64,000 nucleotides of DNA from positions 11,962-75,961 of IMG/VR virus record IMGVR_UViG_3300050821_003659, one strand, 5' to 3'. The stretch is from a virus. A program made the translations under genes and the position numbers. Below the pieces are notes generated by a model. The model saw only the letters and a program-made list of their open reading frames with translations. It was not told the origin of the DNA and did no database searches. Below are positions 5,827-47,882 of the stretch, one piece after another; positions within the stretch are counted from its first letter, which is position 1, and each line of letters opens with the position of its first letter.

Positions 5827-6319
5827 TTTCCCCTCCAGAAAAAAGTAAAGCCCACTCAACGCTTGGCAGCGGAGCGGGCTTTGATCTCGGTGGTGTCGCC
5901 GCGTTGAACGCGACGAGGAGGAGGGTCACCACCGTCTCTCGTGGATGTTTGGCGGTTTTACTTAGTTGAGCGTCCGATTAGGTAAGGATTCATCTCATTC
6001 GAGGGCACCGTCGAGCCAAAAGGTCTTCATTCTCCCTTACTATATGCACCGCTTTTCCCTTTTTCGGGAGAAGATTGTCCGTAAGTGCATGAAAAGAAAG
6101 CAAATATATTAGTTCGTTATCTCCCCGTTCTCGTCCCCTTTCTTATAACTGATGTCGAGATCGCCCCCTTTTGGGCGAGTTCCCATTGCCTGTGCCCCGT
6201 GTAGAGCGTCGAGGATCGCGGTGCCGCCGACGTACGAAACGCGTTTAGATCGCCCACGTTCCATCGACAGCCCTTCCTTGCGAAGACGCTTTTCCCAGTA
6301 CTCGGGTGAGTCTTTCTGC

Positions 6320-7311: not shown

Positions 7312-7341
7312 ACGGGGTCAGCAATGGCCCCGTTCTTTTTT
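7312..7341 (+). terminator. Rho-independent terminator/attenuator
   Basis: ACGGGGTCA/TGGCCCCGT hairpin followed by a T-tract. Confidence 0.7.
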
Positions 7342-7356
7342 GTCCGAGGAGTTTTG

Positions 7357-9474
7357 ATGGCTGACCCCAAGATTGTCGCAGAGCTAAAAGCAGCCGCTGA
7401 AGACGCCCTGTCCCGTGGATTCGCGATTCTCACGTGCGAACCTCATGACAAGGCACCGTACGCCAAGTACAGTCCCCATGCGGTCAATTCATCAACCCGA
7501 AAACCAGAAGTCGCACTCGCCGCGTGGGTCGCGGGCGAGGAGGCCAACTATGGCGTTGGCTGTGGCCCCAGTAACATCACCGTGGTTGACGTGGATCACG
7601 GGATCAATAATCTCGAAGAGTTCGAAGCGTGGCGAACCAAGCACGGTCTGCCTGAGACGTTCACTGTCATCTCAGGACGTGACGGCTTTGGTGCCCACAT
7701 GTACTATTCAGGCAGTGTGCCGACCTGTGGATTCAACATTGGTGAAGTCACCGGAGAACTGAAGGGTATCGGAGGATACGTCGTCGGCCCCGGCTCGATT
7801 CACCCGAGCGGCAAGAAGTATGCGTTGCTGAAAGACGTGGCTGTAGCTCCGCTTCCAGACGGACTCGTCGCGATGGCGAAGTCTAAGACGAAAGAGAAGC
7901 TGGAGTACAAGCCGAAGGCCCAAGGTGGCGGACTGATCGCGGCGGGCAACCGCTGGATTCACCTGCAATCAAAGGCGGGCACGTTCCGCAATGCAGGGCT
8001 GGATGAGGAAGGCATTTACCTCGCTCTGAAAAACTTCGCAGAGAACAACTGCGAGGATGGAGCGAATTATCCAGACGACAAGATTCGATCTCTCGCGAAG
8101 GCTGCGGTCGGCGTGTTCGATGCGACCGAGTCCGCACCTGTCATCTTTTTCAGCGACAACAACACGAAGCTGAAGGTCGGCATCGAAGAGTTGCCAAACG
8201 ACGCCGCAGAGGGCGACTGGCTTGGTGAGATGGCTCATCACGTCTCGGACGGGACTTTTATTCCGCTATCATTTGCACGCACACAGATCAAGACGATCCT
8301 TGCCTCATCGATCAACGGACTTGTCGGCTTCCCGAGCCAGCCTGATATTCACATGAAGCAGTGGTCGGTTCTCGTCTCGTCCCAGCCCGAGTCTGGTAAG
8401 GGCGAGTCGTGGAAACGCACGGCAGAAGCGGCTCTCGCGAACTACATCAAGAAGTCGAGCGTCGGACTCCCGAAGGCAGGATACTTCTCTTCGGGTGAGC
8501 ACATGGTCAAGTACCTTGCTGATCCTGAAAACGGATTTCCCGACAACGGACTCGGCGGACGAAACGTCCTCGTGTACTTTGACGAGTTGAAGTCTCTGTT
8601 CGAGAAGGGAGCGTCTGTCGGATCGACGTTGTTCTCGAAGATGATCGAACTCTACGAACGCGACGACTCCAGTGCGGGATCACTCTCGCACGAGGGCGGC
8701 GAGTTCAAGAACATCGCACTCTCGTTCACCGGAGGTTTCACTGGATCGTCGTTCGATGCGGCGGTTGCTGGCAAAGGTGCGGGCGGCGACGGATTTCTGT
8801 CGCGTTGCGTCCTCGCGTACACTGGCGACGTGAAGCACTGCGGCGACTGGGCGGATCAGGACACTGCGGCGATCAATGCTCTCTCGCAGAAGATGCTCAA
8901 GAAGTACAGCGAGTTGTTGCAATCGTTTCTCGATAAGAAGAACGCTGATTCCGGTAAAGAGGAGTTCGATCCTCTAAAGTGGCGATACGTGCCTGTAGAA
9001 ACATCCGAAGCGAAGCAACTCCGCATGGACTTTCAGAAGTGGCTCTTTGAAAAACGCAAAGAGCACAACGAACGTCATCCGGGGTTGGGATACATGTCGC
9101 GTATCGAGGCTCACTTCAAACGCGATCTGCTGATGCGGACAGTGTTCTCTGATGACACGACGATCACTGCTGACAAGACGCAGAGGGCCATCGACTGGGC
9201 GAAGCATGAGTTGTATCTGCGTGAGGAACTCTGGCCTGTTGATCGAGGCTCTGTGGTCACTCGCATGGAGGCAACGATCATCCGGGCGTTGGAGAAGCAC
9301 GAGCACCTCACGAAGATGGAACTGCAACGCTTCTGCAACGTCAAGCGATCCGAATCAGGCGGCGTCGGAACGTTCAATATGGCGTGGAAGAACATGATGC
9401 AGGGCGGCTGCGTCGAGGTGGTTGGCAAGACGCACAAGGGCACGGAGAAGTTCGGATTGGTCGAAGGCTTCTAA
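7357..9474 (+). CDS. Bifunctional primase-polymerase with C-terminal helicase-like (DUF3987-type) domain
   Basis: ANYGVGCG, VVDVD, GAHMYY and GGYVVGPGSIHPSGKKY Prim-Pol motifs; Walker-like PESGKGES and YFDEL. Confidence 0.85.
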   Translation: MADPKIVAELKAAAEDALSRGFAILTCEPHDKAPYAKYSPHAVNSSTRKPEVALAAWVAGEEANYGVGCGPSNITVVDVDHGINNLEEFEAWRTKHGLPETFTVISGRDGFGAHMYYSGSVPTCGFNIGEVTGELKGIGGYVVGPGSIHPSGKKYALLKDVAVAPLPDGLVAMAKSKTKEKLEYKPKAQGGGLIAAGNRWIHLQSKAGTFRNAGLDEEGIYLALKNFAENNCEDGANYPDDKIRSLAKAAVGVFDATESAPVIFFSDNNTKLKVGIEELPNDAAEGDWLGEMAHHVSDGTFIPLSFARTQIKTILASSINGLVGFPSQPDIHMKQWSVLVSSQPESGKGESWKRTAEAALANYIKKSSVGLPKAGYFSSGEHMVKYLADPENGFPDNGLGGRNVLVYFDELKSLFEKGASVGSTLFSKMIELYERDDSSAGSLSHEGGEFKNIALSFTGGFTGSSFDAAVAGKGAGGDGFLSRCVLAYTGDVKHCGDWADQDTAAINALSQKMLKKYSELLQSFLDKKNADSGKEEFDPLKWRYVPVETSEAKQLRMDFQKWLFEKRKEHNERHPGLGYMSRIEAHFKRDLLMRTVFSDDTTITADKTQRAIDWAKHELYLREELWPVDRGSVVTRMEATIIRALEKHEHLTKMELQRFCNVKRSESGGVGTFNMAWKNMMQGGCVEVVGKTHKGTEKFGLVEGF

Positions 9475-9667: not shown

Positions 9668-9954
9668 GCGGCAAAGAGCCAAAAGTCGTCTATCTCGATG
9701 GAAACATTGAGCTTGGATGGTTTCGGATGGGCCGGGGCGTTCCTGACGGCGTGTCTGTGGCTCCTGTAGGAGGGACAATCCACCTCCAGACCTTCCGCAT
9801 CGCGGAGTGTGCGAGGTTGAAGGATGCCCGCCTCTTTCGCGATCTGTTTCACAAACGGTTCCGGCACTGCTGGGCACGCGGCGACTGGTTTAAGAACCTC
9901 GACATCGTGGACGCGATCAAAGCATTCGACGTGTTGATGAGGAGTGAACAGTGA
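9643..9954 (+). CDS. T5orf172/Mug113-like (GIY-YIG superfamily) protein
   Basis: C-terminal HKRFRHCWARGDWF resembles the H..F....RGEWF motif. Confidence 0.5.
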   Translation: MTTIQTTIRGKEPKVVYLDGNIELGWFRMGRGVPDGVSVAPVGGTIHLQTFRIAECARLKDARLFRDLFHKRFRHCWARGDWFKNLDIVDAIKAFDVLMRSEQ

Positions 9955-12038
9955 GACGACTCTGGCTGGACTTCGAAACTCGTTCGATGCTGAACATCAA
10001 AAAGGTCGGTCTTGACCGCTACGGCAAGGACAAGACGACTCAGGTGCTCATGCTGGCGTGGGCTTTTGATTACGACAAACCCCGTCTGTGGCTCCCCTGT
10101 CTCGGGGAACCGATGCCCCCGGAACTCTACGCCGGATTGACAGACCCGACAGTTCTGAAGTGTGCGTGGAACTTTAACTTCGAAAAAGACATCCTGCACT
10201 TTCAACTCGGGATCGCGATTCCGCTGGTTGAGTGGTACGACCCCGCAACGCTTTGTGCTTACATGTCGCTGCCTATCGGCTTGCACCGAGCCAGCCAAGC
10301 ACTCGACATCGACACGAAGAAAGTTCACATCACGGGCGACGAGCGTCCTGTGAAGATGTTCTCGAATCCGTCGAAGCAGTTGAAACGCGTGCTGAAGAAA
10401 AATCCTGACGCACCTGCGTTTTACTTCAAGGATTGGAACTCGCATCCTGAGGACTGGGCGATCTTCTGCTCGTACTGTATTCAGGACGTGGAGGCGGAAC
10501 GCGGCGTGTGGGAGGCTGCGGTCGCATTCAACTCCCCGATGACGCACGGCGAGAAAGAGGCGTGGCTCCTCGACCAGAGGATGAACGACAACGGTGTCTG
10601 GATCGACATGCAGTACGTCCTGAACGCGATGAAGGTCGCACAGGGCGAGGCCGACCAGATCATCGCAGAGATGAAACTGGAAACGGGTCTGGAGAATCCG
10701 AACAGCCGCGACCAGATTCTCGAATGGTTGCAAGCACGCAATTATCCGTTCGAGAGCGTGGACGTTGAGCACATCGAGGAGGCACTGAAAGAACAGAAGC
10801 GTTACAAGATGCCGCCACTCGCGATCAAGATTCTGCTGCTGAAGCAGAAGCTGGGCGGCTCCGCGTACAAGAAGCTGCAAAGCATTCTCGACCGCGTCGG
10901 CCCTGATGGTCGCTTGCGAGATCAGTTCACTTATCACGGAGCACACACGGGTCGGTGGTCTGGACGCGGCGTGCAGTTGCAAAATCTGTACAAGCCTGAC
11001 CGTGAAGTCTCTCGTGCGTTGGAGCAGCTAGTCACCGCACTGCGAGACGGTACGCTCGACATTCCGAATGTCATCACCACGTTTGACGCGGAGATTGACA
11101 CATGGAACTCCGCAAATCCTGCGGAGAAACCAAAGAAGCACCTTGACCCGAAGCCCTTCACACCGATGGAGGTGGTCGCGTCAACGATCCGGGCCGCGTT
11201 CGCTGCGGCACCGGGGAACAAACTGGTTGTCGGTGACCTTGCACAGATCGAGTCACGCGTGCTGGCTGCAATCGCACAGTGTCCGACGATGCTCTCCGCG
11301 TACGCAGAGGGCCGCGATCTTTACAAGGAAGTGATGGCGGCACAACTCGGCATTCCGCTGAGCGAAGTCACCAAGGCACACCGCGACCGAGGCAAGGTCA
11401 TCATCCTCGGCTGCGGATACGGGATGGGCTGGGAAAAGTTCATCGACTACGCCCTCACGTACGGCATCGTGCTCACCGAGAAGGAAGCGAAGGATGCAGT
11501 CTGGGGATTCCGCGAGACGTACAGCGAGATCGTGGACTTCTGGGCAGAGATCAATCAGGCAGTCATCACGGCGTTCAAGGCGGGCATCTGCGTGTACGTA
11601 CGCGGGCTGGTCGTAGATGGGCGAGATGAGAAGTGCCTGAAGATCAAGCTGCCGAGCGGACGGTACATTCACTACCACAAGCCGACACTGCTGTTCGAGC
11701 CTCCACCGTGGGGCGGGCCACCTAAAGAGTCGATCAGCTTCATCATGTACGGCTCGAAGGGTGCGGAGAGCAAGCGGCTTTACGGCGGGCTGCTCACTGA
11801 GAACATCGTTCAAGCGGTCGCACGCGATCTGTTGTTGAACGGCATGCTTGAGGCCGAGAAGATGGGCTTCAAGATCATTATGACGATTCACGACGAGATA
11901 GCTGGTGAGGTGCCAATAGATTCTCCGCTGGGAGAGAAGGAACTTCTGGCGGCGATGTGCATCGTCCCCGAGTGGGGCGAGGGCATGGGGTTCGTACTCA
12001 AGGCAGAAGGGTACGAGAATCCGTACTACAAGAAATAG
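9951..12038 (+). CDS. Phage family A DNA polymerase with 3'-5' exonuclease
   Basis: LDFETRS ExoI, HTGRWSG..VQLQN, DLAQIESRVLA (motif A), RDRGKVIILGCGYG (motif B), TIHDEI (motif C). Confidence 0.95.
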   Translation: MRRLWLDFETRSMLNIKKVGLDRYGKDKTTQVLMLAWAFDYDKPRLWLPCLGEPMPPELYAGLTDPTVLKCAWNFNFEKDILHFQLGIAIPLVEWYDPATLCAYMSLPIGLHRASQALDIDTKKVHITGDERPVKMFSNPSKQLKRVLKKNPDAPAFYFKDWNSHPEDWAIFCSYCIQDVEAERGVWEAAVAFNSPMTHGEKEAWLLDQRMNDNGVWIDMQYVLNAMKVAQGEADQIIAEMKLETGLENPNSRDQILEWLQARNYPFESVDVEHIEEALKEQKRYKMPPLAIKILLLKQKLGGSAYKKLQSILDRVGPDGRLRDQFTYHGAHTGRWSGRGVQLQNLYKPDREVSRALEQLVTALRDGTLDIPNVITTFDAEIDTWNSANPAEKPKKHLDPKPFTPMEVVASTIRAAFAAAPGNKLVVGDLAQIESRVLAAIAQCPTMLSAYAEGRDLYKEVMAAQLGIPLSEVTKAHRDRGKVIILGCGYGMGWEKFIDYALTYGIVLTEKEAKDAVWGFRETYSEIVDFWAEINQAVITAFKAGICVYVRGLVVDGRDEKCLKIKLPSGRYIHYHKPTLLFEPPPWGGPPKESISFIMYGSKGAESKRLYGGLLTENIVQAVARDLLLNGMLEAEKMGFKIIMTIHDEIAGEVPIDSPLGEKELLAAMCIVPEWGEGMGFVLKAEGYENPYYKK

Positions 12039-12433: not shown

Positions 12434-12535
12434 GTAGAGGGGAGTGAGGTAAAGCGGCTCCCTACCAGCCCTTGACAGAACACCGCATCTGGGCGATCAT
12501 GCCGCTTGGGTCACTCCCAAATTTTAGGAGGAACG

Positions 12536-12778
12536 ATGACAGTTTTCGGAGCGATTGTAGCAGCAGTTTTGCGGAAGGCCGAGGCGTTCCTCGCGGAATG
12601 CAAGGCCCTCGTCGTGAAGGCCAAGGCGATTGAGAAGAATCTCGTCGCGACGGCTGAGCACGATGTGCACGAAGTGATCTTGAAGGCGAAGGAAGACGTG
12701 ATCGACATCGAGACGAAGGTCGAGAACGAAGTCAAGACTCTGAAGAACGAGTTGGTTGACAAAATCTCGAAGCTGTAA
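12536..12778 (+). CDS. Small helical protein
   Basis: AGGAGG RBS; amphipathic coiled-coil-like sequence. Confidence 0.7.
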   Translation: MTVFGAIVAAVLRKAEAFLAECKALVVKAKAIEKNLVATAEHDVHEVILKAKEDVIDIETKVENEVKTLKNELVDKISKL

Positions 12779-12783
12779 GTTAC

Positions 12784-12932
12784 GGGCACACGCGGTTACG
12801 GAACTGGGTGTTCAATCACTCAGATCGCAACCAACGGAGACTTTGTCAGAAAAGAACGCACGTGAAACGTCGCGACGAGTAGCGTGCAAGTAATCCGTTG
12901 GGAATGGTGGTTCGAGTCCACAGGTGCCCACC
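12784..12932 (+). ncRNA. tRNA-like RNA with a large internal domain
   Basis: GGGCAC/GTGCCC acceptor stem + ACC; T arm GTGG-TTCGAGT-CCAC; internal helices CTGGGTG/CACTCAG, CCAACGGA/TCCGTTGG and GCACG/CGTGC. Confidence 0.65.
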
Positions 12933-13149
12933 GACATTGAGGTTGCTGATGTGAGAAGGCTAAACTCTGACGTGTAAAATGCGACCGAGCCTTGGAAGTA
13001 GGTCGTGTTTCCAAAAAGTTTGACCCCCAATTGATAGGCAGATACTGTCAGCACGTGAAGTCGTGCGTCGAGCCGCCACGTAAGGGGCGGGGAGATATAG
13101 TCATAATGCTGCTGGGTCATTTTGGGCGAGGGGCTTCACTCGCCCACCG

Positions 13150-13500
13150 AATTACGCAAGTATGAAGGCGTTGTTTCCGTTTTCGGACGCGGGTTCGATT
13201 CCCGCCGCCTCCACCAAAGATGCTGAATCAGCGACACAGTGTGCACACGTCGTGTGATTGAGGTTCGTTTAACTCCTCACGATAGAACACGCTTGAGAGG
13301 TTCAGCACTTTTGATGGGGGCGTCAAGGCTTCGACGGAGGCGATGAGATGGCGTTGGACTTGCCGAGGTTGTATGGCTCCTCGTTAAACAGACATGCAAA
13401 AACCAAACGCAGAGACTAAACCCCTCGCGATGGCTGCTGCCGCTGGTCGGTAGAAGTCAGGAGGCTTTGCTCCCACCTTCTCAAATAACGGGAGCACTTT
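13150..13500 (+). ncRNA. ssrA: Circularly permuted (two-piece) tmRNA
   Basis: The acceptor piece ending GGGTTCGATTCCCGCCGCCTCCACCA (13216) precedes the coding piece starting GGGGGCG...TTCGAC (13316). G3-U70 pair, P2 pairing and pk1 (CGAGG/CCTCG, TTGTATG/CATGCAA) are present. Resume codon GCA at 13409; tag AETKPLAMAAAAGR-stop. Outer ends are approximate. Confidence 0.92.
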
Positions 13501-13633
13501 CATAGTCGCTCGTGATAGCATGAGGGCGACTGTTCAACCAGTTCGAACAAACGCACGGCACCTTGAGTACCCGTGCGACCCGTTGTCCCCATCGGATTGT
13601 GGCGGGACGTGAATCGTTGAACGAGCGACTATG
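13501..13633 (+). ncRNA. Structured RNA closed by a 13-bp perfect stem
   Basis: CATAGTCGCTCGT/ACGAGCGACTATG plus internal GTTCAAC/GTTGAAC and CGCACGG/CCGTGCG. Confidence 0.55.
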
Positions 13634-13638
13634 AACTT

Positions 13639-13791
13639 ATGAACACACTGAAACTAGCACACGCGGTCATCGTAGCAATGTCAGTCGAGAGCCTCGTGGC
13701 ATCGGCTGCATTCGCGTACGAACACAACTGGAAACTCGCACTGTACTGGTTTCTCGTCTCTGCGATCAATGCGGTCGCATCGACGTTTTGA
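13639..13791 (+). CDS. Small two-helix membrane protein
   Basis: 50-aa hydrophobic ORF MNTLKLAHAVIV...WKLALYWFLVSAINAVASTF; weak RBS. Confidence 0.5.
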   Translation: MNTLKLAHAVIVAMSVESLVASAAFAYEHNWKLALYWFLVSAINAVASTF

Positions 13792-15401: not shown

Positions 15402-16067
15402 ATGGCGATGACAGGCGACATCAAATCGTACATGCAGCAGTGGCTCCAAACGGCAACGAAGGGCGATGTCGTCGTAGACTACGCGTGGTTTCAAGACCGC
15501 ATGGAGTTGCGGTGCAAGAAGTGCCACGCGGTGTTCCGCTGCACGCTGCCTGAGAGTCCGACTGAGATTGACTGGTCAATCCAGAAGTGGGTAAAGCAGC
15601 ACGCACCCGGAGGAGAGCACGACACAAAAGAGTTGCACTGTCCTGTCGATCCGATTCCGCTCACTGCGGACTTTCACAAGCTGCCGAGTTTCAATCCGAT
15701 TCCGTTACAGACGGGCGGGCAAACAGGGATCATCGACGCCAGCGAAGCGAAGGCCGCGATCCTGAAAGCCCAGATGGAGACGTACAAAGCTGAGCAGGAA
15801 AAGAAAGACATCGACGGCAAGGTTGAGTGGTTGAAGAAGACGGCGGCACAGAAGGCTGAGGTTGCTGCGGCACAGACTGAGAAGGCGAAGGAACAAGCTC
15901 TTGCGAATCTGCTTCTGATGATGACACAGATGACGCAGAACCCCCAGATCGTCAAGGCGATGAAGCCGCCAGAGGCCGTCCTTCCGAAAGAATGGGAGAC
16001 AACAGTCACGCCGCAACCGAGAATACCGAAGGCCGCGAAGATCGTCACAGGACGGAGGTTCCGATGA
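15402..16067 (+). CDS. Hypothetical protein with CxxC and a GRRFR C-terminus
   Basis: AGGAG RBS; 221 aa. Confidence 0.75.
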   Translation: MAMTGDIKSYMQQWLQTATKGDVVVDYAWFQDRMELRCKKCHAVFRCTLPESPTEIDWSIQKWVKQHAPGGEHDTKELHCPVDPIPLTADFHKLPSFNPIPLQTGGQTGIIDASEAKAAILKAQMETYKAEQEKKDIDGKVEWLKKTAAQKAEVAAAQTEKAKEQALANLLLMMTQMTQNPQIVKAMKPPEAVLPKEWETTVTPQPRIPKAAKIVTGRRFR

Positions 16068-37230: not shown

Positions 37231-37713
37231 ATGAAAAGCCTTTCCAAAGACGAGTTGAAGTCGCTGCTCGAAGTCGCTGGCCCGGACAGACTTCTGTTCA
37301 CGGTGATGTTCAATCACGGGCTGCGGGTGTCTGAGGCTATCGCCCTGAACGACACGAACGTCGTAGACGGACACCTTGTGGTGCAGCGTCTGAAGGGTTC
37401 GGAGAAGACCACCCAGCGTATCCTCGCGGACGAGGCACAACTGCTCACGATGAAGGGCCGCTTCTTCCCGATGTCTCGCTGGACTGTGAACCGCCGTCTG
37501 CAAGAGGCGGGCGTGAAGGCGGGAATCCCCGAGCACAAGCTGCACGCTCACGTGTTGAAGCACACGACGGGGCGACTGGCGTATAAGGGCGGCTGCGGAG
37601 TGGCTGAGATACAGTCGATCCTCGGTCACAAGTGTGGCGGCAACTCGATGATCTACATGCAAGCTGATGAGTCCGAAGCGTACGCGGCGTTTGCTGCGGC
37701 GGTAGGCAAATAG
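37231..37713 (+). CDS. Short tyrosine recombinase (catalytic domain only, FimB-like)
   Basis: HGLRVSE, RLKGS, HAHVLKH, LGH and MIY catalytic residues. Confidence 0.85.
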   Translation: MKSLSKDELKSLLEVAGPDRLLFTVMFNHGLRVSEAIALNDTNVVDGHLVVQRLKGSEKTTQRILADEAQLLTMKGRFFPMSRWTVNRRLQEAGVKAGIPEHKLHAHVLKHTTGRLAYKGGCGVAEIQSILGHKCGGNSMIYMQADESEAYAAFAAAVGK

Positions 37714-46847: not shown

Positions 46848-47882
46848 ATGGCAGTTCGCACACTCGATCCGAAGCGACAGAGTTACAAAGCTGAGGCACT
46901 CGCGTCACGCCTCTCCCTCCGCATCGTCGGACAGACGGGGCCGACACAGGCCCTCCTCTCCGCAATCGCAAAGTATCAGAGCGGCTTCTACGACAAGACG
47001 AAGCCTATCTTCAGCATGCTTGGACTGGGGCCTACGGGCGTCGGCAAGACTGGCGTGTTTGAAGCCTTCGCGGAGGGCCTGTTCGGTTCTCCGAAGCACA
47101 TGCTGAAGGTTGACTGTGCGGAGTTTCAGCACAGCCACGAGATCGCAAAGTTGGTCGGCTCTCCTCCCGGATATCTCGGACACCGTGAGACGCACCCGTT
47201 CTTTACGAACGCGTCTCTCGCGGCTCTGCGGACTCCTGAGCTAGACTTCACCATCGTTCTCTGGGACGAGATCGAGAAGGCAAGCGACTCTCTCTGGAAT
47301 CTCCTACTCGGCATCCTCGACAAAGGGACGCTAACCACGGGGACGAACGAGAAGGTTGACATGACGAAGACGGTTCACCTCATGACCAGCAACGTCGGCT
47401 CTGCGGACATCAGCGACGAGGCATCTATCGGCTTCGACGCTGGACAGAAGCAGATGACCGACCAGCAGGTGAGCGACACCGTGATGGCTGCGGCACGCCG
47501 CAAGTTCATGCCCGAGTTCCTCGGTCGTCTGGACGAGATCGCGGTGTTCAAGACTCTGACCGAGTCTGAGATCGCAGAGGTGCTGGGGCTGCAACTGAAC
47601 GACCTGAGCGACCGCATCATGCTCAGTGCACCTGTACCTTTCGAGTTCAACGTGTCGCCCGCTGCTATCCGGCAACTGCTGAAGGAAGGATACGACAGGC
47701 GATACAACGCACGCGGTTTGAAGCACGTGATCGAGAAGCACATCGCCCTCCCCCTTGGACGGCTGATGTCAACCGGACAGGTGATGCCAAATGACATCAT
47801 CATCGTGGACTTCGACCAGAACTGGAAATACTATGCCCAAATCCCCCTTGCCCGAGCCGCTGCGGAAGGCGATATACTTTAG
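46848..47882 (+). CDS. Single-domain Clp (ClpA/B/C D2-type) AAA+ ATPase with an IGF loop
   Basis: GPTGVGKT, GSPPGYLG pore loop, WDEIEKA, MTSNVG, SIGFD, PEFLGRLDE and NARGLK. Confidence 0.9.
   Translation: MAVRTLDPKRQSYKAEALASRLSLRIVGQTGPTQALLSAIAKYQSGFYDKTKPIFSMLGLGPTGVGKTGVFEAFAEGLFGSPKHMLKVDCAEFQHSHEIAKLVGSPPGYLGHRETHPFFTNASLAALRTPELDFTIVLWDEIEKASDSLWNLLLGILDKGTLTTGTNEKVDMTKTVHLMTSNVGSADISDEASIGFDAGQKQMTDQQVSDTVMAAARRKFMPEFLGRLDEIAVFKTLTESEIAEVLGLQLNDLSDRIMLSAPVPFEFNVSPAAIRQLLKEGYDRRYNARGLKHVIEKHIALPLGRLMSTGQVMPNDIIIVDFDQNWKYYAQIPLARAAAEGDIL

Follow-up and report, generated by a model that had tools for sequence, protein, structure and literature searches.

The locus at positions 13124-13544 of the viral DNA analysed here raises the question of whether a phage carries a functional transfer-messenger RNA (tmRNA, the product of ssrA) in permuted, two-piece form, from which lineage such a gene was derived, and what is gained by a peptide tag in which Gly-Arg follows the alanines. 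The DNA, referred to below as the window, comprises 64 kb of a 75,961-bp IMG/VR virus record (IMGVR_UViG_3300050821_003659) with a CheckV completeness of 80%. An earlier note on this DNA had described a permuted phage tmRNA at this place, and both programs used here called the gene. ARAGORN reported a permuted tmRNA at 13124-13544 (+ strand) with the tag AETKPLAMAAAAGR followed by a stop codon, and the Rfam model RF04321 (tmRNA_permuted) matched 13156-13441 over model positions 1-213 with 73.7 bits (E 2.9e-12), compared to a gathering threshold of 47 bits. The half bearing the CCA end precedes the GGGG 5' half, which is the gene order required for membership of RF04321. The parts of the gene, in nucleotides (nt) of the window, were assigned as follows.

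13124 to 13216, + strand: predicted acceptor piece, starting at 13124 according to ARAGORN and at 13156 according to Rfam
Within 13124 to 13216, + strand: 5' leader hairpin of the acceptor piece
13156 to 13185, + strand: 3'-side strands of P2, including the GTATGAAG loop at 13160-13167
13189 to 13205, + strand: T arm, from reading of the sequence
13206 to 13212, + strand: 3' strand of the acceptor stem, from reading of the sequence
13213 and 13214 to 13216, + strand: discriminator A and encoded CCA, respectively, from reading of the sequence
13217 to 13315, + strand: intervening segment of 99 nt, predicted to be removed on maturation
13217 to 13229 with 13299 to 13311: closing stem of the intervening segment, directly after CCA
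13312 to 13315, + strand: 4-nt UGAU leader (TGAT in the DNA) between the closing stem and G1
13316 to 13408, + strand: 5' part of the coding piece, from the Rfam alignment
Within 13316 to 13408, + strand: D-loop analogue of the coding piece
13316 to 13322, + strand: 5' strand of the acceptor stem, GGGGGCG, from reading of the sequence
13335 to 13363, + strand: 5'-side strands of P2, from the Rfam alignment
13364 to 13399, + strand: pseudoknot PK1, followed by an A-rich spacer before the resume codon
13409 to 13450, + strand: tag reading frame of 14 codons with resume codon GCA and stop TAG at 13451-13453
13460 to 13496, + strand: post-tag pseudoknot-like element
13468 to 13474 with 13490 to 13496: post-tag hairpin TGCTCCC/GGGAGCA with a 15-nt loop, from fold prediction

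The G3:U70 pair corresponds to G13318 opposite T13210, and the T loop is the canonical UUCGAUU. PK1 consists of a first stem CGAGG/CCTCG of 5 bp and a second stem TTGTATG/CATGCAA of 7 bp, and ends 9 nt before the resume codon. Intact G3-U70, P2 and PK1 had all been claimed before, and all were confirmed here. The same holds for the 99-nt segment with pairing ends, the stem of which covers 13 positions, arranged as AAG-A-TGCTGAATC against GGTTCAGCA-C-TTT, with 9 bp between TGCTGAATC and GGTTCAGCA, the AAG/TTT pairs and a single A-C mismatch. Downstream of the tag, a candidate pseudoknot was recognised by eye in the window between GGAGG (13460-13464) and CCTTC (13476-13480) in the hairpin loop, and the post-tag pseudoknot pairing, of 6 bp, was found by script in the relatives L011 and L023. 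The simple finder used for PK1 and hairpins was noisy for several relatives, and only clear cases were used.

The tmRNA is a conserved, real gene rather than a chance match. All five phage contigs with a DNA polymerase 60-78% identical to that of the window (L010-L014) carry a permuted tmRNA, in each case at the same place downstream of the polymerase gene. Further members were retrieved with two RNA sequence patterns from IMG/VR contigs of 40 to 463 kb and from metagenome contigs, and the family extends to further soil phages, including ones of 332 kb and 463 kb. Pairs were counted in an alignment of 14 sequences (A2) with the structure taken from the window: 86.3% of the pairing cells were paired, compared to 65.9% in column shuffles, with 0/500 shuffles reaching 86.3%, and to 40-51% when the partners were slid by 1-3 columns. 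Compensatory changes on both sides were present in 37 of the 46 pairs, covering P2, the T arm and P1. The U:G at 3:70 was kept in 14/14 homologues, and P1 and the T arm were 100% paired.

The closing stem is also under pairing constraint in A2, in which all nine counted pairs covary and 92% of cells pair. Its geometry is similar in most members (9-12 bp, beginning directly after CCA and ending 4 nt before G1), with unrelated sequences, and the interior of the spacer varies from 25 to 125 nt among relatives without sequence conservation. The post-tag hairpins of the relatives likewise have covarying stems, with loops of the form ACC..CAA(A/C)A(G/U)AA(C).

Some members depart from this plan. In the gene at L012:8369-8668, the T loop is shortened (GGGTC-GTACCC), CCA is not encoded, the spacer measures 25 nt and the tag ends in AGM; the encoded CCA is also missing in L013 (ACCC) and L168 (ACTG). 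In L011, L023 and L160, an insertion of about 30-50 nt (A2 columns 297-346), which the window does not have, lies between stem 1 of PK1 and the resume region.

The tag of the window is rich in Lys and Pro, has a core of four alanines and ends in Ala-Ala-Ala-Ala-Gly-Arg-stop. It belongs to a phage-only tag subfamily with the pattern A-x-T/P-K/E...A-M/F-A-A-A-A, in which Gly-Arg follows the alanines in about half of the genes. An ending in Ala-Ala-Gly-Arg was found in eight distinct genes, the window, L011, L013, L023, L160, L168, L194 and L198, when L013 is counted once with the identical L201; L160 lies on the same contig as L204. The codon changes indicate that the tag is translated and that the Gly-Arg cap is under selection, because the Gly codons (GGT, GGA or GGG), the Arg codons (CGG, CGC, CGT or AGG, including a switch between CGN and AGG) and the Ala codons of the tags, which vary at third positions only, all change synonymously, and because L194 and L204, with the same 15-residue tag, show 8 synonymous and 0 non-synonymous differences. 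The earlier description of a tag ending in AAAAGR thus stands, its ending being conserved with synonymous codon changes and not the product of a mis-called frame. The alternative resume codon GCA at 13396, with a frame to TAA at 13417-13419, was rejected: its frame is unconserved, and the GCN at 13409 is invariant across the family alignments.

The same codons bear on a different explanation, in which Gly-Arg would have been selected as RNA, or would be neutral read-on past a stop that was lost, with no function for the ending of the peptide. An identical string, GCTGCCGCTGGTCGG, is present in four of the Gly-Arg genes, as this explanation would predict; the other Gly-Arg genes, however, use GGA CGC, GGG CGC, GGA AGG and GGA CGT, with changes at synonymous sites only, and TAA or TAG follows Gly-Arg immediately in all eight. 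Moreover, the synonymous differences between whole tags are found in genes that are otherwise only 69% identical (L194 compared with L160, on the contig of L204). In its extreme form, the RNA would be a decoy titrating SmpB, like the RNA of mycobacteriophage DS6A, which has a tRNA-like domain only; decoy tmRNA fragments do exist in phages (PMC4131195), but the window has retained PK1, the context of the resume codon and the reading frame, none of which is required in a decoy. We regard a functionless ending as highly improbable and retain selection on the translated Gly-Arg cap.

The remaining sister tags end in AAAA (L010, L020, L021, L159), AAHA (L014, L017, L203), AAYA (L202), AGM (L012) or VAA (L024). 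Within the family, the tag is most changeable in its last two or three residues, those relevant to ClpX. No AAGR tag was present in the accessible parts of the supplement text of PMC11915505 and PMC9004378. What is new is the family of capped tags, phage two-piece tmRNAs being already known.

A link between the cap and C-terminal tails of the form G-R-[RK]-[FMI]-R on phage proteins was considered and rejected, as the distribution of these tails does not follow the tag type: there are 6, 5, 4 and 4 of them in G000, G001, G002 and G007, of which G001 has an AAAA tag, and none in G004, which has a Gly-Arg tag. As a separate observation, a DNA pattern encoding G-R-[RK]-x-R with TRR after it had six + strand matches in the window compared to 0 in the reversed control, with open reading frame (ORF) ends at 16067, 22916, 27718, 28789, 35717 and 36208; the relatives G001, G002 and G007 had 5, 4 and 4 matches, respectively, and G004 had none.

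By analogy with bacterial two-piece tmRNAs, one precursor would be transcribed from the gene, in which the closing stem of the 99-nt spacer would present the acceptor stem to host tRNA-processing enzymes. RNase P would cleave before G13316 and the 3' end would be trimmed to the encoded CCA, yielding an acceptor RNA and a coding RNA that would be joined by P1 and P2. Host alanyl-tRNA synthetase (AlaRS) would charge the product through G3:U70, and host SmpB and EF-Tu would bring it into stalled ribosomes, on which translation would resume at GCA 13409 and add 14 encoded residues after the alanine borne by the tmRNA. The phage RNA would in this manner supplement trans-translation during infection. 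The phage of the window has no SmpB, none being found in six related records, and no ClpP was found in this phage or its close kin; therefore, the RNA must use the SmpB, AlaRS, EF-Tu and RNase P of the host. Together with the tRNA genes and the two RNA ligases of the phage, the tmRNA looks like part of a kit for sustaining translation where the mRNAs of the infected cell are cut.

In Escherichia coli, ClpX binds the terminal Ala-Ala of the ssrA tag together with its free carboxylate (Fei et al. 2020, PMC7652416). The phage tag resembles this degron in being an Ala-rich C-terminal tag added co-translationally and in containing an Ala-Ala element. In contrast to a ClpXP-type degron, in which the second residue of a terminal Ala-Ala bears the free alpha-carboxylate (PMC7652416), its Ala-Ala is internal and its carboxylate lies on Arg, so that the canonical ClpXP route should be lost or weakened; judged from the E. 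coli complex, the contacts of Thr199, the Val154 amide and the RKH loops could not form in the same way. By the same analogy, it is plausible that the Gly-Arg cap lets tagged products escape ClpXP. We consider it likely that the locus represents a functional ssrA gene in a soil phage of putatively lytic type, permuted in a manner that is not independent of known two-piece tmRNAs, and that its cap most likely uncouples ribosome rescue from ClpXP or redirects the tagged products.

Several points weigh against this reading. The rule for ClpX is taken from E. coli and not from the presumed host. The phage closest to that of the window by its proteins (L010; polymerase 78% and ATPase 69% identical) has a tag ending in four alanines, and the cap is therefore not essential to this type of phage. 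The tmRNA tree is poorly resolved, and a single origin of Gly-Arg is not decidable from it. With regard to expression and cleavage into two pieces, a search for the source sequence among sequencing runs returned only the probable source, a soil DNA run, and no RNA run was listed.

A further gene of the window was considered in connection with the tag.

46848 to 47882, + strand: D2-only Clp/Hsp100 ATPase of 344 amino acids (Pfam AAA_2 and ClpB_D2-small), putative partner of the tag

The earlier note had spoken of a phage ATPase acting with ClpP: a Clp-type ATPase is indeed encoded, whereas the ClpP gene is not encoded by the phage. The ATPase has Walker A and B motifs and a GYLG pore loop, and an IGF loop occupies the position at which ClpP would dock; neither an N domain nor D1 is present. 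Its best solved relative is the D2 domain of ClpC, with IGF aligned to the GF (ClpP-docking) loop of ClpC. The form [ILF]GF is kept in 8/8 homologues, as are the Walker motifs and GYLG.

On this basis, a private circuit of tagging and degradation may be proposed, in which the phage D2-only unfoldase, working on host ClpP, would read the phage tags. The phage, and not ClpX or SspB of the host, would then decide the fate of rescued chains, and the endings AA, HA, YA, GR and GM would be specificity codes. The intact motifs, the conserved loop at the position of the ClpC ClpP-loop and the need for a host partner in the absence of a phage ClpP are consistent with this, and so is the distribution of the ATPase: it was found in 8/8 phages of the tag family that are at least 80% complete (76-463 kb, including those of 332 kb and 463 kb), and was absent from two complete phages, the L024 phage and Tunturi 4, the permuted tmRNAs of which have tags ending in VAA. 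A close homologue was not found in cultured phages. However, the ATPase occurs equally with AAAA, AAHA and AAGR tags and does not track the Gly-Arg cap, its co-occurrence with the family may be due to common ancestry or to a host gene pool that the phages share, only about three independent lineages were sampled, and a D2-only ring without an N domain may have quite different clients. The circuit is proposed from sequence, its binding and degradation steps being hypothetical, and we hold it to be unlikely. The corresponding idea of a quality-control loop belonging to the phage itself, in which Gly-Arg would be a version of the tag unseen by host ClpX and visible to the phage reader, is equally doubtful; if true, the family would represent a natural set of orthogonal degron-unfoldase pairs. 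The escape of tagged products from host ClpXP, or their redirection, remains the preferred role of the cap.

The probable host was approached through the tRNA-like domain. The 22-nt 5' end of the coding piece was found in at least 120 bacterial genomes, in standard tmRNAs, and Acidobacteriota account for about 80 of the 120 listed, mainly Terriglobales (Granulicella, Edaphobacter and Tunturiibacter among them). The tmRNA of Granulicella also has a 3' end close to the acceptor piece of the phage. The need for host SmpB, AlaRS, EF-Tu and RNase P would explain such a host-like tRNA-like domain. The sequence similarities make Acidobacteriota, class Terriglobia, the likely host phylum. Two points tell against this assignment: it is based only on the similarity of the tRNA-like domain, GC content (56% in the phage) and the soil habitat, and a comparison of 20 kb of the window with 401 Acidobacteriota genomes gave only matches at the level of tRNA-Thr and tRNA-Ser, with 73-84% identity. 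No spacer-like or prophage match was found in the same 401 genomes, a result that speaks neither for nor against the host.

In the 15 loci that were checked, 14 tmRNAs were called, all of the standard one-piece form with tags ending in LAA, YAA, IAA or AAA, and no true permuted tmRNA was present in 151 sampled Acidobacteriota genomes. Five matches to tmRNA_permuted above its threshold (G139, G115, G103, G076 and G093) were rejected as permuted tmRNAs from the ARAGORN calls: in three, a tRNA-Asp immediately preceded a one-piece tmRNA, one was a one-piece tmRNA alone, and in the fifth only tRNA-Val and tRNA-Asp were called. The 151 genomes, taken as two samples, include three unpublished ones (G042, G067 and G170), and none of the conclusions depends on these. 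If the host phylum is correct, the host shares neither the permutation nor the tag with the phage. A host tmRNA with the same permutation and tag, against which the earlier note had wished to see its proposal compared, was thus not encountered in the sampled genomes of the probable host phylum.

A cultured siphovirus, Tunturi 4, infects Tunturiibacter and Granulicella; its paper makes no mention of a tmRNA and reports one tRNA of unknown type. An unannotated permuted tmRNA with a 33-residue tag ending in AVAA was observed in its genome (PP885687.1, L145:2937-3471). It adjoins gp53, which encodes an RF-1-domain (ArfB-like) protein, so that two ribosome-rescue functions stand side by side.

The origin of the permuted form was examined with the lineage-specific models of Rfam. 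The window RNA missed the threshold of each: it scored 37 bits with alpha_tmRNA (RF01849; threshold 50, model positions 84-170 only), 44.6 bits with beta_tmRNA (RF01850; threshold 84, positions 78-165 only) and 35.7 bits with cyano_tmRNA (RF01851; threshold 70, positions 51-126). All three models thus fail on this RNA, of which the tRNA-like part alone aligns, and this counts against derivation from a known lineage; the case for descent from the alpha/beta type is accordingly made by motifs held in common and by the better-scoring sister genes. Among the latter, L014 (alpha 72.8, beta 66.8 bits) and L020 (alpha 51.7, beta 63.4 bits) align end-to-end and pass alpha_tmRNA, L168 reaches 64.2 bits with beta_tmRNA, and the best family members score 63-67 bits with that model over its full length. 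As to motifs, the internal loop of P2, GTATGAAG, is common to the window and to many phage tmRNAs with AND..Y..AA tags, the beta_tmRNA scores of which (87-127 bits) exceed the threshold, and the 3' motif of alpha_tmRNA recurs as the loop of the post-tag hairpin, which reads ACCUnGnAACAGAA in most members and ACCUUCUCAAAUAAC in the window. These sequence features suggest that the window tmRNA belongs, as a diverged branch, to the two-piece tmRNAs of alpha/beta type that are widespread among phages.

The other possibility is that a one-piece tmRNA captured from the host became permuted within the phage lineage, apart from the alpha, beta and cyanobacterial events. It would account for a tRNA-like domain (22-nt 5' end, T arm and acceptor) that resembles the one-piece tmRNAs of Acidobacteriota and not the alpha consensus, and for an RNA that passes no lineage-specific model. 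A host-like domain is, however, to be expected in either case, as selection would adapt it to the SmpB, AlaRS and RNase P of the host. Outside this domain, the gene is broken at the same point as the beta-type phage tmRNAs and the alpha model and is built alike: GTATGAAG lies in P2, a single pseudoknot hairpin with a conserved loop follows the tag, and a 4-nt leader comes after the closing stem. Its sister genes align end-to-end with the alpha and beta models. The post-tag region is, by eye, unlike PK2-PK4 of Granulicella. We judge such an origin improbable, and the possibly independent permutation put forward in the earlier note is not upheld, as GTATGAAG and the post-tag hairpin are common with the beta and alpha types and the sister genes align over their full length. 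Descent from the alpha/beta type is preferred.

The two-piece tmRNAs of Beta- and Alphaproteobacteria (Keiler et al. 2000; Sharkady and Williams 2004, both as cited in PMC9004378) share with the window the order of acceptor half, spacer and coding half, P1 and P2 between the pieces, PK1, and a single post-tag pseudoknot-like hairpin in place of PK2-PK4. The GTATGAAG loop is held in common with the beta-type phage members and the ACCUnGnAACAGAA loop with the alpha model. In contrast, the UUCGAUU T loop of the window is unlike the alpha consensus, and its tag neither starts with AND nor ends in AA.

For 18,146 phage genomes, 53 two-piece tmRNAs have been reported (Buchholz et al. 2022, PMC9004378), and 79 phage sequences are contained in the tmRNA database. 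As in the window, the OM43 phage Melnitz and the pelagimyophages of that study have a permuted ssrA in a phage of virulent type, among replication and tRNA genes, with a tmRNA lineage that can differ from that of the host and without a phage SmpB. Nearly all known examples are marine or aquatic and have AND...AA tags, and Melnitz has a glutamine riboswitch (PMC9004378), whereas the phage of the window comes from soil, probably has an acidobacterial host, adds a tag capped by Gly-Arg and shows no riboswitch by Rfam. The tmRNAs of the mycobacteriophages of the Bxz1 group and of Bacillus phage G differ in being one-piece and not permuted (Hudson, Lau and Williams 2014, PMC4131195). The DS6A RNA, with its tRNA-like domain and no tag frame, is thought to inhibit the host system (PMC4131195). 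The phage ssrA genes and fragments of that study are alike in their reliance on host SmpB.

Little was found in the literature on the function of phage tmRNAs. The family described here provides a natural experiment, in which the differences between closely related phage tmRNAs lie mainly in the two or three residues on which recognition by ClpXP depends, and in which Gly-Arg after four alanines is maintained by selection. If the cap blocks degradation, the phage would want recycling of ribosomes without proteolysis, a long-debated split of the two functions of tmRNA. The circulation of two-piece tmRNAs in phages of a phylum that has a one-piece tmRNA also bears on the spread of the permuted form. 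Tunturi 4 and Tunturiibacter offer a cultured system for a permuted tmRNA in an acidobacterial phage.

The surroundings of the gene contain the following features.

12472 to 12500: second sigma-70-like promoter match, from a consensus scan only
12951 to 12980, + strand: sigma-70-like promoter match upstream of the tmRNA gene, from a consensus scan only
13499 to 13636, + strand: structured domain of 138 nt with a closing helix of 15 bp, after the tmRNA and before the next ORF
13639 to 13791: ORF following the tmRNA and the 138-nt domain

The scan for sigma-70-like promoters gave 2 matches compared to 0.6 expected, and a consensus match alone is no indication of function. No ORF of at least 50 amino acids overlaps 13166-13628 on either strand. 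Just upstream of the tmRNA gene lie genes for a primase-helicase (7324-9474) and for a DNA polymerase of family A (9951-12038), and the window also encodes seven or eight tRNAs (according to ARAGORN and Rfam), two RNA ligases, RecA and a helicase. A blastn search of the tmRNA gene against 50,697 phage records returned only T-arm matches of 34-37 nt. Among cultured phages, neither the DNA polymerase nor the Clp ATPase has a close relative, with identities of at most about 34-37%.

The 138-nt domain is closed by an inverted repeat of 15 nt (13499-13513 and 13621-13635) and has a predicted fold of -70 kcal/mol (z = -3.6), with 0/200 shuffles as stable. It is missing in the relatives, in which a ribosome-binding site and ORF come directly after the post-tag hairpin. 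It may be a 3' boundary or a processing element. It may also belong with other long-stem intergenic RNAs of the same genome.

A small ORF of 160 amino acids (37231-37713) matched the tyrosine recombinase family in the catalytic part only. Reading the tmRNA locus as an attP fragment, in view of this small tyrosine-recombinase-like ORF 24 kb away, was rejected, as the locus is a complete covarying tmRNA and not a 3' fragment alone.

A tRNA-like element was observed at 12784-12932, between a small ORF (12537-12779) and the tmRNA, with an acceptor-type stem GGGCAC.../...GGTGCCC, a GGTTCGAGTCC T arm, an ACCG end and an insert of about 70 nt; it was called by neither ARAGORN nor Rfam, even at E up to 1. 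In L015, a distant relative, a standard tmRNA match of 82 nt (5917-5998, 56.4 bits), also uncalled by ARAGORN, ends 3 nt before the matched DNA polymerase region and may be an RNA of the DS6A kind, consisting of the tRNA-like domain only. In the 332-kb phage, two tRNAs with a CTA anticodon (amber suppressors) lie near a tmRNA with a double-stop tag (L017:7297-7583), which hints at recoding of TAG in this phage. Finally, GOLLD RNAs were observed inside tRNA arrays at L152:4754-5180 and L161:6656-7122 (171 and 181 bits, respectively), in phages that also encode beta-type permuted tmRNAs.

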